Below, in pieces: positions 3,271 to 16,522 of a DNA stretch of 24,224 nt. The notes below the pieces were generated by a model. It had not been told where the DNA came from and made no database searches. It saw only the letters and a program-made list of their open reading frames with translations. Position 1 is the first letter of the stretch, and each line of letters begins with the position of its first letter. A program made the position numbers and the translations under genes. Where the stretch lies: IMG/VR virus record IMGVR_UViG_2548876940_000013, positions 1 through 24,224 of that record, one strand, 5' to 3'. The stretch is from a virus. Lineage: Duplodnaviria > Heunggongvirae > Uroviricota > Caudoviricetes.

Positions 3271-4293
3271 ATGGCAAAATTAAATGCTAGCGAAAGACTC
3301 GTTACTCATCATAGTCTGACCATTGACACAAAGTTTAGAACCAAGGCAACACAAGAGGTAAAAGCCCAGTGTATATGTCCTGTTCCGGAAATGTACATGC
3401 TTGCCCCATTGATTGTTAAACAAAAGGGACTCGTTCATTCATATGATTCTGGGAATATTGTAGTTACTCTCCAAGATGTACAACTTTATCCTTTACTTCC
3501 AGATAACTCACCCACGCATATTGTCCTTCTTATTAATAGTGTTGATAAAAATGGAAGTACTACCGTTGTAAAAAATATAAATACTAATGAACGCGTTGAA
3601 ATCCAACCAAAATATGAACAAGGTGAAGGCTATGAAGTTTCTACCTATGTTGTCATATCATTAAATGGAAATAAAAGAACCTATGATATGATTTGTACAT
3701 CTACCCCAGGTGTATCTACGGCCCGGTTAAATAGTTTTTTAGACAAAATTCTCTTTGAAGTGGCGAAAGACAATGAAGACTTATTTACCGCAAAACATCC
3801 AACTAACGTTATTTCTGCAACATCAAAAAAAGAAGTAAAAATACGATACAAACCAATATTTGAATTTACAGGAATGTTAGACAAGGAGCTTTTTAATAAA
3901 ATAAGCCAAAAAGGATTATCAGATGTCATATTAGTCAAGGATCAATTCGGAACAATTAATGCTCCTGATGTTAATTCACCTTACATTCCGACTGAAAGTA
4001 CATTAAAATTACTTCCAAATCATGGTGACAATGTTATTGGATGGATTAAAAATGTAGCATCTCATTTCAATAAAAAAATGAATGGTGGTTATGATAAATT
4101 AAAGGTTAAATTCCAAGATCCTGAAACAAATAAACCAAGGCAGGTTGATTTCAAAACCTCAAACATCAATCTTAATAATTTAGAAAAAACATTTATTAAG
4201 AAAAGCATTATCGATAACTTTAATTCGCGCCTGAAGGATTCATATGTTAAAATTGAACTAGAGTTTGTTGTGAAAATGATAGATTTGATGTGA
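3271..4293 (+). CDS. Hypothetical 340-aa soluble protein, first gene of the Q-lysis cargo cassette (candidate defence/abortive-infection component)
   Basis: Clean 340-aa ORF with ATG start, visibly AT-rich, antisense to the late operon. Lys/Asn-rich; no motif I recognise. Confidence 0.6.
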   Translation: MAKLNASERLVTHHSLTIDTKFRTKATQEVKAQCICPVPEMYMLAPLIVKQKGLVHSYDSGNIVVTLQDVQLYPLLPDNSPTHIVLLINSVDKNGSTTVVKNINTNERVEIQPKYEQGEGYEVSTYVVISLNGNKRTYDMICTSTPGVSTARLNSFLDKILFEVAKDNEDLFTAKHPTNVISATSKKEVKIRYKPIFEFTGMLDKELFNKISQKGLSDVILVKDQFGTINAPDVNSPYIPTESTLKLLPNHGDNVIGWIKNVASHFNKKMNGGYDKLKVKFQDPETNKPRQVDFKTSNINLNNLEKTFIKKSIIDNFNSRLKDSYVKIELEFVVKMIDLM

Positions 4294-4300
4294 GGTTATT

Positions 4301-4885
4301 ATGCCAATACTTTCAGTTTTCTCTCATCTAGGCAAGCCGTTTGGATATCTTTTTATTAAAGGTATTAGCGGCAAAGCTGCATATGATTGGGTAGCACCAA
4401 TTCTACTTACTTCTATCACAGCAGTACTTTTCATTCTATTAAAAATCCCTGTCAAAGATTTATTTGATGACAATGGTTTCATTAAATCAATCGTTTCATT
4501 TATCTCTAACCTACCAGGGTTTTATATTGCCGCTCTGGCCGCCATAGCAACTTTCAATAGAGCTGAGATTGATTTACCATTGATTAGCAATGAAAGAAAT
4601 GCCTCTATTGAAATAAAAGTAACAAAAGAAAATGGAAAAGTAGTAAATTCAGAGGAGGTTCTGACCAGACGATTATTTCTTTGCATGCTATTCTCTTTTT
4701 TAACAGCATTAAGCATTGTTATAATAATACTTAATGCTATATTTTCACCATTAATCAATGTCTATCAAAACAGTATTGTTTTAATGGTTTATACTGTTGT
4801 ATTTACTTTCCTAGTTTGGCAACTCTTAGTATCAACTTTCTTTGGATTATATTATCTCGGAAACAGAATTCATATGAATTATTAA
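4301..4885 (+). CDS. Hypothetical 194-aa integral membrane protein (about four TM helices), second gene of the cargo cassette
   Basis: ATG 7 nt after the stop of the upstream gene, with the SD gagg overlapping that stop (operon). Four hydrophobic segments, roughly aa 30-50, 60-85, 125-148 and 159-186. Confidence 0.6.
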   Translation: MPILSVFSHLGKPFGYLFIKGISGKAAYDWVAPILLTSITAVLFILLKIPVKDLFDDNGFIKSIVSFISNLPGFYIAALAAIATFNRAEIDLPLISNERNASIEIKVTKENGKVVNSEEVLTRRLFLCMLFSFLTALSIVIIILNAIFSPLINVYQNSIVLMVYTVVFTFLVWQLLVSTFFGLYYLGNRIHMNY

Positions 4886-7472: not shown

Positions 7473-7795
7473 ACTTTCATGCCCCTCTTATGTAACCAGT
7501 GGGTTGCACGCAGCCTGGCGTTTTCCTCACCGGCAAGCAGTGCGCGGATAATCCCGACCGCCTCGCTGTCGTCGTCCTTGACCGCGGTATGAAGCGTTAT
7601 CCCCCGGGCCACACCACGCTTTATCGTGATGACGCCTTTTTTCTCCAGTGCGCGAAGATGCTCCACCGCTGCATTCACCGAACGGTATCCCAGCATGGTT
7701 GCCACCTCCTGATTGGTTGGCGGGAAGCCACGTTCTTTCTGATAAGAAATCAGCATATCCAGCACCTGCTGCTGGCATTGAGTTAACGTCGTCAT
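7469..7795 (-). CDS. LexA-like DNA-binding protein (N-terminal winged-helix domain only, no S24 peptidase domain)
   Basis: QQQVLDMLISYQKERGFPPTNQEVATMLGYRSVNAAVEHLRALEKKGVI parallels the LexA N-terminal domain, including the recognition-helix SxNAAxEHL pattern; the protein ends about 40 aa later. ATG at 7795 overlaps the upstream stop (TAATG). Confidence 0.7.
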   Translation of the reverse strand: MTTLTQCQQQVLDMLISYQKERGFPPTNQEVATMLGYRSVNAAVEHLRALEKKGVITIKRGVARGITLHTAVKDDDSEAVGIIRALLAGEENARLRATHWLHKRGMKV

Positions 7796-8283
7796 TACGC
7801 CCCCACGTAATTCCCTGACAGATACCACTCATCACTCGATACAGCGCGCTTGCTGCTTTTCCGTAAACACTGCTCACGACGCGCCAGAAAATTGTTTCGT
7901 TCTGGCTGGGAGTGGCTTTCACGGAATGCCGCCATCCACACCGTTGCAGCACGACGGTATAAGCCCCTTGACTCCAGTTCTTCAGCCTGGCGGGTCAGGC
8001 ACAAAATCACCCGGGGATCGTTAGTGCCGACATAGAAATTGCGCACAGGTCTGGTTTCACGAACTGGTTGTGGTTCCGGCTCCTGCGCTCTCTCAGTCAG
8101 GCGCGGGAAATGTCTGCGTGTATCTCCTTCACAACGGTGAGCCACACGCCCACTCTGACGTAACTTGCTTGCTGACTGCAGAACGCGCTGCCGTGAGTAA
8201 CCTGCAAAAGCATCCGCAATGTCTCCGGAAGTACACCCCGGATGGGCTTCAATGAATTTCTGAACTTCATTCAAAAGACTCAT
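7795..8283 (-). CDS. Hypothetical regulatory protein with a PerC-like C-terminal motif
   Basis: C-terminal GLYRRAATVWMAAF resembles the PerC-family signature as recalled. ATG at 8283 with SD aggggg. Confidence 0.4.
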   Translation of the reverse strand: MSLLNEVQKFIEAHPGCTSGDIADAFAGYSRQRVLQSASKLRQSGRVAHRCEGDTRRHFPRLTERAQEPEPQPVRETRPVRNFYVGTNDPRVILCLTRQAEELESRGLYRRAATVWMAAFRESHSQPERNNFLARREQCLRKSSKRAVSSDEWYLSGNYVGA

Positions 8284-8285
8284 AA

Positions 8286-9227
8286 TCACCCCCTGAATCC
8301 TGCCGGGATCTGGCTGTAGTCCACGTTGTCGTAACTGGCTTTGAAGTACGGGTCTTCACGTTTTTCTGTGTGCGTGCTGACGGACGGCGATAAGCGCAGG
8401 GAAAGCTCATCCCATTTTTCCCGCAACTTCGACGGGCTGAGCACGTTACGGCACCAGAACGGATCGCGGCTGACGCGGCTGTACATCTCGCAGATTTGTT
8501 TGTGAGTACGACCATCCTGCACACACATCAGGCGAATTTCGTTTGCCCAGGCTGTCCAGTTAGGTTCTTTGGGACGAACCACCTCGCCGTCACATTCGGC
8601 GGCCTGCTCGTACAGGGCGATGATTTTTTTCCAGAGCCACTGTGCGCAGGTCAAATCATCCTGCGTTCCCCACTGGCGCTTTTTAGGGCTGAATACAACC
8701 GCATCAGGATGGCGAGTTAAAAAATCCTGTTCATCCATCTGCGTGTCCGGTTGCGAAGCGTCCGGACGAGAAGGTTTTTTATCTGATGGATCATGTTTTG
8801 ATTTTACTGACGGATCCCCGCCAGATTCTGACGGGTGAAAACCCGCTTTTTTGCCAGATTTCGACGCATCAAATTTTGACGGGTCAGATTTTGATGCGTC
8901 AGATTTTGACGGGTCAGAATCTGACAGTTGAGAAAATGCCGCTGCCTGAAGCTTCGCAACGTTAAGCTGATAAACATTCGACGCATTGCGGTTACCCTGG
9001 CGACGCGCCTTACGCGTTAACCAGCCTTCTGCTTCCAGCCGTGCGATAGCCGTTCTGACGGTACTCATCCCCGCGCCAATCTGACGGGCAATGGTTTCAA
9101 TTGATGGCCAGCACACACCTTCGTCATTACTGAAATCAGCCAGGCGGGCCATAATTGCCACGCTGGATAACTTCATGCCTGATGCAGCGCAACCATCCCA
9201 TACATAGCCGGTTAATTTAGTGCTCAT
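8286..9227 (-). CDS. Phage replication initiation protein (winged-helix N-terminus, iteron-encoded linker, DnaT-like C-terminus)
   Basis: N-terminal HTH (WPSIETIARQIGAGMSTVRTAIARLEAEGWL). Central low-complexity repeat SDPSKSDASKSDPSKFDASK encoded by the iterons. C-terminal end SQIPAGFRG resembles the E. coli DnaT C-terminus as recalled. Confidence 0.7.
   Translation of the reverse strand: MSTKLTGYVWDGCAASGMKLSSVAIMARLADFSNDEGVCWPSIETIARQIGAGMSTVRTAIARLEAEGWLTRKARRQGNRNASNVYQLNVAKLQAAAFSQLSDSDPSKSDASKSDPSKFDASKSGKKAGFHPSESGGDPSVKSKHDPSDKKPSRPDASQPDTQMDEQDFLTRHPDAVVFSPKKRQWGTQDDLTCAQWLWKKIIALYEQAAECDGEVVRPKEPNWTAWANEIRLMCVQDGRTHKQICEMYSRVSRDPFWCRNVLSPSKLREKWDELSLRLSPSVSTHTEKREDPYFKASYDNVDYSQIPAGFRG
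8800..8927. repeat. Origin-of-replication iteron array inside the replication gene
   Basis: Seven copies of a roughly 15-bp unit (consensus agattttgacgggtc), four contiguous at 8871-8927 and three more at 8800-8870, with an adjacent AT-rich tract at 8771-8800. Confidence 0.7.
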
Positions 9228-9396
9228 GACCGACCTCTATTTCCCTGAATTTACGACGAAACTGTTCGAGCGGACTGAAGCATTCATGCTCATAACCTTC
9301 GCGGAGGTAGATAACCCGTTGTGTTTCCGGCTCCCAACGAATGACTCTGACGAGCACTCCGTAGTGATCTTTGAACCAGCGGTTAACTTGTCGCAA
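9217..9396 (-). CDS. Small hypothetical protein (59 aa, TTG start), alternative frame to the 9237-9575 ORF
   Basis: TTG at 9396 preceded by a strong SD aaggag with 8-nt spacing. Product ([40 protein letters not shown]...) looks protein-like. The stop overlaps the replication gene start. Confidence 0.3.
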
Positions 9397-10535: not shown

Positions 10536-11222
10536 GTGAAAACACTGGCAGAACGATTAAAGATAGGTAGAGAGAAAGCTGGCATGAGCCAAGCTCAACT
10601 AGCTGAAAAAATTGGACTTTCACAACAATCTGTAGCCAAAATAGAGAATGGCGAAACTCTACAACCGCGCAAAATTAAAGAAATTGCAAAAGTTTTAGGT
10701 GTATCACAAAAGTGGTTACAACTTGGTATTGAAGACAACGCATCCATACCTGATCTTGTTGTAAAAGAAGCAGAAAGCACCGCATTAGACCCCGATATTT
10801 TCGTAAACATTCCTGTTTTAGATGTCGAGTTATCGGCAGGTAACGGATGTCTGGCTGAAATAGTTGAATCAGCTATTGACTGGTTTCCGTTAAGAAGAGC
10901 AGATTTGAGAAAATCTGGCGTATGTGCATCTAATGCCAAGATCGTACAAATATGGGGGAACAGTTTATTACCGGTTCTCAATAATGGAGATCTTGTTGCC
11001 GTTGATATTTCTCAAACCGTTCCTATTCGTGATGGCGATCTTTATGCCGTACGAGATGGTGTATTGCTAAGGGTTAAAATACTTATCAACTTACCTGACG
11101 GTGGCTTGATTCTTAGAAGCTTCAACAAAGATGAGTACCCAGATGAAATACTCACCTTTGAAGATAGACGAGCCAGAATTCATGTTATAGGTAGGGTATT
11201 CTGGTCATCGCGAACTTGGTAA
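10536..11222 (+). CDS. CI-like prophage repressor (XRE-type HTH plus S24 LexA-like peptidase domain)
   Basis: N-terminal HTH (MSQAQLAEKIGLSQQSVAKIENGE) and C-terminal S24 fold with Ser (GNSLLPV) and Lys (LRVKIL) in the expected places. GTG start with SD agagaggg. Confidence 0.85.
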   Translation: MKTLAERLKIGREKAGMSQAQLAEKIGLSQQSVAKIENGETLQPRKIKEIAKVLGVSQKWLQLGIEDNASIPDLVVKEAESTALDPDIFVNIPVLDVELSAGNGCLAEIVESAIDWFPLRRADLRKSGVCASNAKIVQIWGNSLLPVLNNGDLVAVDISQTVPIRDGDLYAVRDGVLLRVKILINLPDGGLILRSFNKDEYPDEILTFEDRRARIHVIGRVFWSSRTW

Positions 11223-15168: not shown

Positions 15169-15414
15169 ATGCTTCAAATGCTGACACTTGAGGAATGGGC
15201 TGCGGAAAAATTTAGGAGTAATCCTCCAAGTGTGTCCACATTGCGCCGTTATGCTAAGCAGAATTTATTTTGTCCACCGGCAATGAAACAAGGTCGACTA
15301 TGGCGAGTGCGTGAGGACGCAGAGTTAGTTGGGGAATTAGTTACCCCTGTCATCAAGAAAAGTGATTCTATTATTCTACAAAGGATTTTAAGTAATGGCA
15401 GCCAGACCACGTAA
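15169..15414 (+). CDS. xis: Excisionase (lambda Xis-like)
   Basis: MLTLEEWAAEKFRSNPPSVSTLRRYAKQNLFCPPAMKQGRLWRVRED parallels lambda Xis (MYLTLQEWNARQRRPRSLETVRRWVRECRIFPPPVKDGREY). The 3-prime end overlaps the int start. Start could be 15154, 15169 or 15178. Confidence 0.75.
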   Translation: MLQMLTLEEWAAEKFRSNPPSVSTLRRYAKQNLFCPPAMKQGRLWRVREDAELVGELVTPVIKKSDSIILQRILSNGSQTT

Positions 15415-16522
15415 AAATAATGTTTCAGTCCCGAACTTGTATCCGCTCTATAGCAGAAAAGTAAATAAAGTCTATTGGCGATATAAGCATCCAGTGACCG
15501 GGAAGTTTCATTCTTTGGGCACAAACGAAGCTGAAGCCATTGCCATTGCCACTGAGGCCAATACACGCCTGGCTGAGCAAAGAACCCGGCAGATTCTGGC
15601 TATCAGTGACAGGATCGCAACCAACAAAGGAAAAGCAATCACAACGTCAACCTGGTTAGATCGCTATCAAGCAATCCAGGATGACAGACTGAAAAGTGGC
15701 GATATAAAGCTCAACACCTATAAACAGAAAGCCAAACCAGTATCCTTGCTCAGGGAACGAGCAGGACTGAAGTTAATTTCAGCCGTTGATGTCAGGGATA
15801 TAGCCCAGTTGCTTGACGAGTATATCGCCGCCGGACAGCCGAGAATGGCGCAAGTAGTTCGCTCCGTCCTGATTGATGTTTTCAAAGAGGCACAGCACTA
15901 CGGAGAAGTACCTCCTGGCTATAACCCGGCATTAGCTACTAAACAGCCAAGAAGAAAAATTACACGACAGCGGCTAAGTCTTGAAGAATGGCAAAAAATC
16001 TTTGATATCGCAGATGCCAGTCATCGCTACATGGGAAATGCCATGCTGCTAGCATTGGTTACTGGTCAGCGGTTAGGTGATATTTCACGTATGAAATTTA
16101 GCGATATTTGGGATGATCATCTTCACGTCATCCAGGAAAAAACCGGGAGCAAAATCGCCATCCCGCTTTCTCTTCGTCTCAACGCGATTAACTGGAGTTT
16201 ACGCGATGTAGTCGCCCGCTGCCGTGACTATGCAGTCAGCCCATACCTTGTACATTTTTTCCGTACTACTTCACAAGCTGAACGTGGCGCGCAGGTTAAA
16301 TCCAATACATTGACCATGAATTTCAGTAAAGCGAGGGATTTAGCAGGAATTGACTGGGGTGATGGCTCACCCGCAACATTCCATGAACAAAGGTCTTTAT
16401 CTGAACGTCTGTACAAAGAACAGGGGTTAGACACACAAAAACTGCTTGGTCATAAAACGCAACAACAAACCGATCGTTATCATGACGATCGCGGCAAAGG
16501 ATGGAGCAAAGTAGCGTTGTGA
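15395..16522 (+). CDS. int: Lambda-family tyrosine integrase
   Basis: 375 aa collinear with lambda Int: arm-binding N-terminus (NLYPLYSRKVNKVYWRY), ALVTGQRLGDISRMKFSDI, KTGSKIAIPLS, and the C-terminal HEQRSLSERLY...LLGHK...YHDDRG with the catalytic Tyr region. Confidence 0.95.
   Translation: MAARPRKNNVSVPNLYPLYSRKVNKVYWRYKHPVTGKFHSLGTNEAEAIAIATEANTRLAEQRTRQILAISDRIATNKGKAITTSTWLDRYQAIQDDRLKSGDIKLNTYKQKAKPVSLLRERAGLKLISAVDVRDIAQLLDEYIAAGQPRMAQVVRSVLIDVFKEAQHYGEVPPGYNPALATKQPRRKITRQRLSLEEWQKIFDIADASHRYMGNAMLLALVTGQRLGDISRMKFSDIWDDHLHVIQEKTGSKIAIPLSLRLNAINWSLRDVVARCRDYAVSPYLVHFFRTTSQAERGAQVKSNTLTMNFSKARDLAGIDWGDGSPATFHEQRSLSERLYKEQGLDTQKLLGHKTQQQTDRYHDDRGKGWSKVAL

Follow-up and report, generated by a model that had tools for sequence, protein, structure and literature searches.

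The stretch of viral DNA considered here (hereafter the window) comprises 24,224 nt of the IMG/VR record IMGVR_UViG_2548876940_000013, and corresponds to the early region of an SfIV/SfII-like lambdoid prophage. Its minus strand carries an open reading frame (ORF) for a 313-aa replication initiator, beginning with an ATG codon that is preceded, 7 nt upstream, by the sequence GAGG (Table 1). The original prediction, derived from the letters alone, had proposed that this protein combines a winged-helix N-terminus with a C-terminus like that of the primosomal protein DnaT, that iterons lie within its own gene and that the phage, devoid of a helicase loader, recruits the host primosome. Its assignment as a replication initiator was upheld by a full-length match to PHROG 391 ('replication initiation O-like'; E 1.5e-135, with residues 1-313 aligned to positions 1-298 of the 298-position profile).

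The gene presents 98% nucleotide identity to the replication gene of the Shigella phages SfIV and SfII, and the surrounding 2-kb stretch is 97-98% identical to these phages and to several Escherichia coli phages. Annotation of the gene in phage genomes varies ('replication protein', 'DNA replication protein O', 'primosomal protein' and 'Primosomal protein I'), and the last of these labels shows that annotation pipelines have already caught the resemblance to DnaT. Matches to the gene were identified in 2783 of 5426 complete E. coli genomes, roughly half of them, and members of the initiator family are also present in the Shigella phages SfIV/SfII and in Shiga toxin (Stx) phages. The gene is a common and unexceptional representative of the lambda O family, for which an origin located inside the gene is textbook knowledge.

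A lambda-O-family initiator with a DnaT-type tail

AlphaFold2 (AF2) models delineated two folded domains (residues 1-99 and 166-280), joined by a disordered linker and followed by a disordered tail. In the N-terminal domain, helices spanning residues 3-67 precede a beta-hairpin wing at residues 70-88, and Pfam HTH_36 matches residues 23-70 (positions 9018-9161; E 4e-11), with weaker matches to GntR, MarR and DnaD_N, in full agreement with the winged helix initially proposed. The linker, for which the predicted local distance difference test (pLDDT) falls below 50 at residues 102-161, is rich in Ser, Asp, Pro and Lys, and homologues differ in its repeat part mainly through repeat-sized insertions and deletions (5-aa units or blocks). 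The C-terminal domain was matched to that of lambda O (NC_001416) by BLASTP (E 8e-26), and both proteins present the motifs WGT, PN, WAN-IRLM, DGR-H and NVLSP-KLR-KW. This domain also weakly resembles the replisome-organiser domains of DnaD and G39P, which interact with DNA or helicase.

The overall organization is that of lambda O, with an N-terminal DNA-binding domain, a flexible linker and a homologous C-terminal domain, encoded in both cases by a gene that follows cII in the rightward early operon. The N-terminal domains are nevertheless different: Pfam Phage_rep_O (PF04492), which matches lambda O itself (E 6e-36), returned no match in the window protein, where HTH_36 is found instead. 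The C-termini also differ, with IPxGFRG in the window protein and the Trp-rich NTDWIYGVDL in lambda O, and so do the genes that follow, a PerC-like gene here and P in lambda.

The resemblance to DnaT resides in the tail. The last nine residues, SQIPAGFRG, are identical in eight positions to the SQIPPGFRG end of E. coli DnaT (verified against PDB 9zbt_D), and pairwise BLASTP aligned this 9-mer only (E 0.009). The possibility that the globular C-terminal domain is a DnaT homologue was rejected, since profile-profile comparison (hhalign) of the C-terminal alignment of the initiator family against DnaT residues 84-179 aligned only the last 17 columns (E 5.7e-5), leaving the rest of the C-terminal half unmatched. 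Likewise, the Pfam DnaT domain (PF17948, a three-helix domain binding single-stranded DNA), which DnaT itself matches with E 7e-21, was not detected in the window protein; BLASTP revealed no similarity beyond the tail to the N-terminal oligomerisation domain or the acidic PriB-binding linker of DnaT; and phmmer searches against PDB sequences with the whole protein or its C-terminal 153 aa returned MarR-type winged helix-turn-helix (wHTH) proteins or nothing, and no DnaT. The DnaT-like C-terminus put forward originally therefore holds for the tail and not for the globular domain. Given that the C-terminal domain matches lambda O and that the alignment to DnaT is limited to the tail, the protein is an initiator of the lambda O family in which the N-terminal DNA-binding domain is of another kind and the tail is of the DnaT type; it is not a member of the DnaT family, with which it shares the tail alone. 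IPxGFRG lies at the end of a flexible segment in both proteins (PDB 9zbt, 2ru8 and 4ou6 for DnaT), whereas the N-terminal domain, acidic PriB-binding linker and three-helix domain of DnaT are all lacking in the window protein, and DnaT in turn possesses neither a sequence-specific DNA-binding domain nor iterons.

Conservation of the motif points to selection acting on the DnaT-like end. Residues G310, F311 and R312 are invariant in 39 initiator homologues, in which the preceding ~25 residues vary freely, and [IV]PxGFRG is retained at 40-50% identity of the C-terminal domain (representatives clustered at 50% identity). On the host side, IPxGFRG is kept in all retrieved DnaT orthologues, even in those with differing flanks or two added residues. 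The similarity is more extensive in homologues from Rac-type modules, which end in QRCVNHISEPDTEIPPGFRG, with 14 of 20 tail residues identical to DnaT (E 1e-7). A co-variation of the GFRGAK variants of DnaT with phage tails was also considered and dropped; the variant DnaTs occur in Citrobacter, Phytobacter, Yokenella and Pseudenterobacter, and GFRGY tails in Pantoea hosts.

The tail is found on at least three other C-terminal domain types, which suggests that it moves as an independent, portable module. A DYSQIPAGFRG tail is attached to Pfam Phg_2220_C domains at loci L137 and L142, and to an unclassified 'YPKR' (SfV/Stx2k-type) domain in phage phiSTEC1575-Stx2k (L144:3778-4596); the initiator of the Stx2k-converting phage has a different C-terminal domain and the same last 24 residues as the window protein. 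The genome locus L138 likewise bears this tail on an initiator with another C-terminal domain. Neither a structure nor a partner has been assigned to residues 154-179 of DnaT (PMC4132743; PMC13377028), and our literature searches turned up no work on what the DnaT tail does, none on this initiator family and none that connects the tail with a missing P.

A single earlier report describes an O-like N-terminus of the HTH_36 type together with a DnaT C-terminal motif, in the DopC proteins of Cellvibrionales and Oceanospirillales (Brezellec et al. 2017, PMC5509034; HHpred against 2ru8). Unlike the window protein, DopC is chromosomal and domesticated, is paired with the P-like protein DopE and lacks both iterons and an O-type C-terminal domain (PMC5509034).

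Iterons and a putative origin within the initiator gene

The DNA encoding the linker carries, on the gene strand, a series of copies of the 13-bp imperfect palindrome GTCARAATCTGAC. Five copies lie in strict 15-bp phase (8925-8913, 8910-8898, 8895-8883, 8880-8868 and 8865-8853), a sixth follows after 33 bp (8832-8820), and a degenerate seventh (8811-8799) falls inside an AT-rich patch. The 15-bp period was recovered both by Tandem Repeats Finder (TRF) and by a repeat search. A search of the whole window for the pattern CAGATTTTGACGGGT, allowing up to 3 mismatches, returned 8 matches where 0.78 were expected, 6 of them within 8822-8929, and none of 100 shuffled sequences reached 8. The seven 15-bp iterons initially located at 8800-8927 were thus essentially right, as six clear 13-bp copies and a weak one, and their codons encode, as anticipated, an SDxSK peptide repeat (SDSDPSKSDASKSDPSKFDASKS).

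Adjoining the iterons, the GC content reaches its minimum within the gene (0.30, at 8766-8805). Two boxes of the form GATCC(G/A)TCAG(T/A)AAAA are present here (8802-8816 and 8778-8792), with GATC at 8789 and 8813, and GATC sites are not enriched across the window overall. By analogy with ori-lambda, the AT-rich patch is likely to be the unwinding region, and the presence of two conserved GATC boxes in this part of the putative origin implies that origin methylation may matter. No DnaA box (up to 1 mismatch) was found within the gene, the nearest being more than 650 bp away from the iterons, and a plasmid-like, DnaA-assisted origin was rejected as unsupported.

Comparison among relatives argues that the repeats are binding sites rather than merely a repetitive peptide. 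Most of 79 viral contigs, all close relatives with C-terminal domain and tail 96-100% identical to those of the window protein, carry 5-8 iteron copies, and 264 of 330 intervals between copies measure exactly 15 bp. A homologue from Pantoea retains the same core, TCARAATCTGA, in 15-bp phase, and a homologue with a different recognition helix carries CCAGAAWCTGRAC in place of this core. Furthermore, two IMG/VR contigs (L020 and L073) encode C-terminal domains and tails 97-99% identical to that of the window protein, joined to unrelated N-terminal domains, and present unrelated 23-bp tandem repeats in the linker DNA. Since the iteron sequence changes with the N-terminal domain, both appear to travel jointly as a specificity module, with the C-terminal domain and tail forming a separate one. 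These patterns are consistent with the linker DNA functioning as a replication origin.

The same layout is found in well-characterized phages. The lambda record annotates four iterons inside O, and the phi80 record four gp15 sites inside gene 15; as in the window gene, palindromic iterons in linker-coding DNA are followed by an AT-rich stretch. The location of the iterons inside their own gene, which the original prediction had singled out, is therefore the canonical one, although the repeats differ from those of lambda in being 13 bp long on a 15-bp phase, as opposed to ~19 bp at 20-24 bp spacing. Winged-helix initiators with phased iterons beside an AT-rich region, dependent on host DnaB-DnaC, are also known from iteron plasmids (pSC101 RepA, R6K pi and RK2 TrfA). 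Origins of the pSC101/R6K/RK2 type do not lie within the rep gene and usually contain DnaA boxes; in contrast, the window gene contains no DnaA box, and its product shows no sequence relation to these Rep proteins beyond a generic wHTH.

Tail class, helicase loaders and the candidate host partner

The phage module appears to lack a helicase loader of any known type. Searches with tblastn, using lambda P, a second P protein and a DnaC homologue as queries, and with a DnaB Walker-A pattern, returned no match in the 24-kb window. The same scan detected no P, DnaC-like or DnaB-like gene in the whole 39.8-kb genome of SfIV, with its 54 genes, or in any of 80 close viral contigs. Pfam searches with 30 window ORFs, among them nearly all of the long non-nested ones, identified no helicase or loader domain. 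The initiator gene of the Stx2k phage likewise has no loader gene beside it, the genes downstream encoding PerC, Dam, a LexA-domain protein and RusA. The predicted absence of a loader gene was thus confirmed for the known types, and a loader of an unfamiliar family is conceivable. Lambdoid modules with an O homologue and no helicase or loader have been reported in 34 of 314 phages (about 1 in 9), with phage LLS as an example; their replication was described as 'not yet understood', and neither DnaT nor tails were mentioned (Genome Res 2025, PMC12315714). The window module belongs to this O-only class, as opposed to the loader-bearing lambdoid modules (O+P, O+DnaC-like or gp18+DnaB-like), and occurs in about half of the complete E. 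coli genomes as well as in Stx phages and serotype-converting phages of Shigella.

To relate tails to downstream partners, a scan of one genome per species identified 56 loci encoding an O-type C-terminal domain or the tail alone, and the 53 with an initiator ORF of at least 200 aa were analysed by extracting the initiator, classifying its last residues and identifying the downstream genes. Initiators with W-rich tails (the lambda-like NTDWIYGVDL, HWNSPEAWENTL or DWNSTGW, among others) were followed in 21 of 21 loci by a Phage_lambda_P gene at or overlapping the initiator stop, whereas no downstream Phage_lambda_P gene was present in the 22 loci with GFR/GWKG tails. The gp15 protein of phi80 obeys the same rule, with the tail NNTDWAYGVIR and the P-like gp14. 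Many N-domain types are represented in both tail classes, indicating that the association between tail and P has outlasted repeated domain shuffling. The genes following GFR tails are in turn heterogeneous (PerC, Dam, MT-A70, ParB-HTH, DUF977 and DUF1627), which suggests that the partner of these initiators is not encoded next door. What these comparisons would add to earlier descriptions is the tail as a portable, conserved motif, present in DnaT as well, and its mutual exclusion with the P loader.

The DnaT-like tail is not, however, a sign of loader absence as such. Rac-type modules (L003 and L004) consist of ydaS-like and ydaT-like genes, an initiator of the same family (59% identical) and, directly after the tail, a full-length homologue of E. 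coli DnaC (E 9e-74); besides this DnaC homologue, they differ from the window module in having fewer and different repeats in the linker DNA. A further tail class was observed in Providencia and Proteus (L115-L120), where O-type C-terminal domains end in ...W.GIWQQAAEQAA... and are accompanied by neither a P gene nor a GFR motif; it represents another loader-less variant.

The explanation that we favour, and in which we place moderate confidence, is that the DnaT-type tail of this lambda-O-family initiator docks onto a host factor in place of P, leading to the loading of host DnaB. Winged-helix dimers would bind the six to seven phased palindromic iterons in the DNA coding for their own linker, the resulting nucleoprotein complex would open the adjacent AT-rich patch, and the C-terminal half would bring in the helicase. 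In this process IPxGFRG would serve as a short docking motif for a host factor also contacted by DnaT, taking over the role of the P-docking tail, so that the loading of DnaB at the phage origin would require no phage-encoded loader. In lambda O the five C-terminal residues are known to be essential, yet a 76-residue tag can be appended to them (PMC6022878), a behaviour that suits a short docking element.

The use of a host factor instead of a phage loader, as envisaged in the original prediction, is thus supported by the tail-versus-partner analysis. That this factor is shared with DnaT is suggested by the lack of a partner gene beside GFR-tailed initiators and by the presence of the same tail on DnaT. 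We infer that it is most likely the DnaB-DnaC helicase-loader complex, or else PriA/PriB: the initiator must recruit helicase, its tail replaces the P-docking tail, and the most DnaT-like tails, those of the Rac type, are followed by a DnaC homologue in an arrangement that mirrors the host dnaT-dnaC operon. The host primosome (PriA/PriB) named originally would hence be one candidate partner, and DnaB-DnaC would fit at least as well.

If correct, this explanation would make the tail of O-type initiators a swappable "address label" determining by which route the helicase is loaded, and a possible target for blocking the replication of prophages, including Stx phages. It would also offer a testable mechanism for O-only lambdoid replication and a possible function for the DnaT tail, bearing on how DnaT connects the PriA/PriB preprimosome to DnaB-DnaC. 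By extension, and more tentatively, IPxGFRG might be the element that hands the preprimosome over to DnaB-DnaC or engages a restart factor, captured by at least three unrelated phage C-terminal domain types for loader-free helicase loading; as a corollary, the dnaT-dnaC operon itself may descend from a Rac-type module.

Several points weigh against tail docking. Preprimosome structures published in 2026 propose the N-terminal domain of DnaT, which the phage protein lacks, as the recruiter of DnaB-DnaC, and in them the C-terminal domain of DnaT, not its tail, docks on PriA, the tail being left undiscussed (PMC13377028). DnaT without residues 154-179 binds single-stranded DNA modestly more weakly, with Kd rising from 9.9 to 27 uM (PMC4132743), so that the tail could serve DNA binding or oligomerisation instead of docking. 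The tail of the window protein itself matches DnaT over 8-9 residues only, and the literature holds no binding or replication experiment for this initiator family. The association between tail class and P (Fisher p ~1e-12) was computed ignoring kinship among loci, and part of it could stem from physical linkage, as the tail codons abut the next gene.

Among the alternatives, an unlikely one is that the tail recruits the PriA/PriB preprimosome, with the initiator mimicking DnaT and the restart pathway (PriA, PriB, host DnaT and DnaB-DnaC) following. The tail is indeed common to DnaT, a preprimosome subunit whose C-terminal half docks on PriA via a hydrophobic interface (PMC13377028), and PriA-dependent priming is known for some plasmid and phage replicons (PMC5778457). 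A tail placed in the DnaT site would nonetheless compete with the DnaT required downstream, and the Rac-type modules and the host operon, where the tail is paired with DnaC homologues, point to DnaC.

Less probable still is a role of the tail in cooperative binding to single-stranded DNA, or in self-assembly, at the opened origin, with helicase arriving via the O-type C-terminal domain or another host route, such as DnaA. The binding of single-stranded DNA by DnaT 84-153 is ~3-fold weaker and less cooperative than that by DnaT 84-179 (PMC4132743), and the weak likeness of the C-terminal domain to DnaD and G39P would agree with such a role. The strict exclusion between this tail and P (0/22 against 21/21) is however hard to explain on these grounds, the tail also occurs with at least three other C-terminal domain types, and the distance from the iterons to the nearest DnaA box speaks against the DnaA route.

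Lastly, a decayed remnant, in which a cryptic prophage would have been deprived of P or DnaC, with the repeats being mere low-complexity linker, might be invoked on the grounds that K-12 cryptic prophages contain remnants of O-like genes and that the repeats do encode a simple peptide, but this explanation is largely refuted and very improbable: the gene is 98% identical in the deposited complete genomes of SfIV, SfII and E. coli phages with named laboratory hosts, the 54 genes of SfIV include no loader, the Stx2k phage has the same tail and no adjacent loader, the loader-less layout recurs in 80 of 80 close viral contigs, and the repeats keep their 15-bp phase and palindromic symmetry and co-vary with the DNA-binding domain.

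Genomic setting and neighbouring genes

The plus strand of the window encodes the integrase, an excisionase, the early-left genes and a cI-type repressor. The rightward operon, on the minus strand, begins with cro/YdaS-like, YmfL/cII-like, DUF4222, initiator and PerC/YfdN-like genes, and continues with genes for a protein consisting of a LexA DNA-binding domain, RusA, KilA-N, DUF968 and the antiterminator Q, followed by holin, endolysin and spanins. The end of the DUF4222 gene overlaps the initiator start, which places both in one rightward early operon, and the same gene order was observed in a Pantoea relative (L006). At the other end, the initiator stop overlaps the start of the PerC-family gene, identified as PerC-like in the original prediction as well, which occupies the position of the loader gene P in lambda.

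Table 1. Replication module and neighbouring genes, in window coordinates
Feature	Positions	Strand	Basis
Replication initiator gene, lambda O family, with putative origin within	8286-9227	-	ORF, PHROG 391, nucleotide identity to SfIV/SfII
N-terminal winged-helix origin-binding domain (predicted), residues 1-99	8931-9227	-	Pfam HTH_36 and AF2 model
Disordered linker codons, residues 100-165, putative origin-carrying DNA	8733-8930	-	pLDDT and homologue comparison
Iteron array	8820-8925	.	Repeat and pattern searches
AT-rich patch adjoining iterons	8766-8816	.	GC minimum, GATC boxes, sequence
Helical C-terminal domain, residues 166-280, lambda O C-domain homologue	8388-8732	-	
Disordered C-terminal spacer and tail, residues 281-313	8289-8387	-	Low pLDDT; DnaT match
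SQIPAGFRG codons, DnaT-type motif	8289-8315	-	
PerC-family (YfdN-like) regulator gene	7795-8289	-	Pfam PerC E 8e-10; PHROG 1324 'transcriptional activator'; RefSeq yfdN
DUF4222 gene, upstream of initiator	9217-9396	-	Pfam DUF4222 E 2e-18
LexA DNA-binding-domain-only protein, 119 aa	7469-7828	-	Pfam E 4e-19
cI-type repressor gene	10536-11222	+	
BRCT-domain protein, 306 aa	11205-12125	-	C-terminal BRCT, Pfam E 1e-6
Integrase gene	15395-16522	+	
TIR-domain protein, 822 aa	16745-19213	-	PADLOC TIR-NLR, full-length, E 4e-167
PDC-M53A match	3271-4293	+	E 2e-32
PDC-M53B match	4301-4885	+	E 2e-54

The LexA-like protein of the rightward operon lacks an S24 peptidase domain, and many relatives retain its gene in the same position, two genes past the initiator. 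A gene for a phage Dam (N6-adenine methyltransferase) was found under the match in most close relatives, among both E. coli genomes and phages, and is missing from the window and from SfIV. In the relatives bearing Dam, the alignment is split into two pieces and is ~650 bp longer than the query, suggesting an insertion; in the Stx2k phage, Dam lies after PerC.

Several further genes in the window present matches to defence-related proteins. The TIR-domain protein is encoded just past the integrase end of the prophage. The PDC-M53A and PDC-M53B matches form a candidate defence pair located between the antiterminator Q and holin genes, on the opposite strand, an arrangement suggestive of a defence moron within the leader of the late operon. 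The gene for the BRCT-domain protein lies directly after that of the cI-type repressor, in convergent orientation, and returned only a weak PADLOC match to PDC-S48. In related prophage early regions, genes encoding a RelA/SpoT-domain protein and a KwaB-like (Kiwa) protein (L099:7405-8430 and L104:8556-9584) were identified downstream of the replication module, and these are probably defence cargo.

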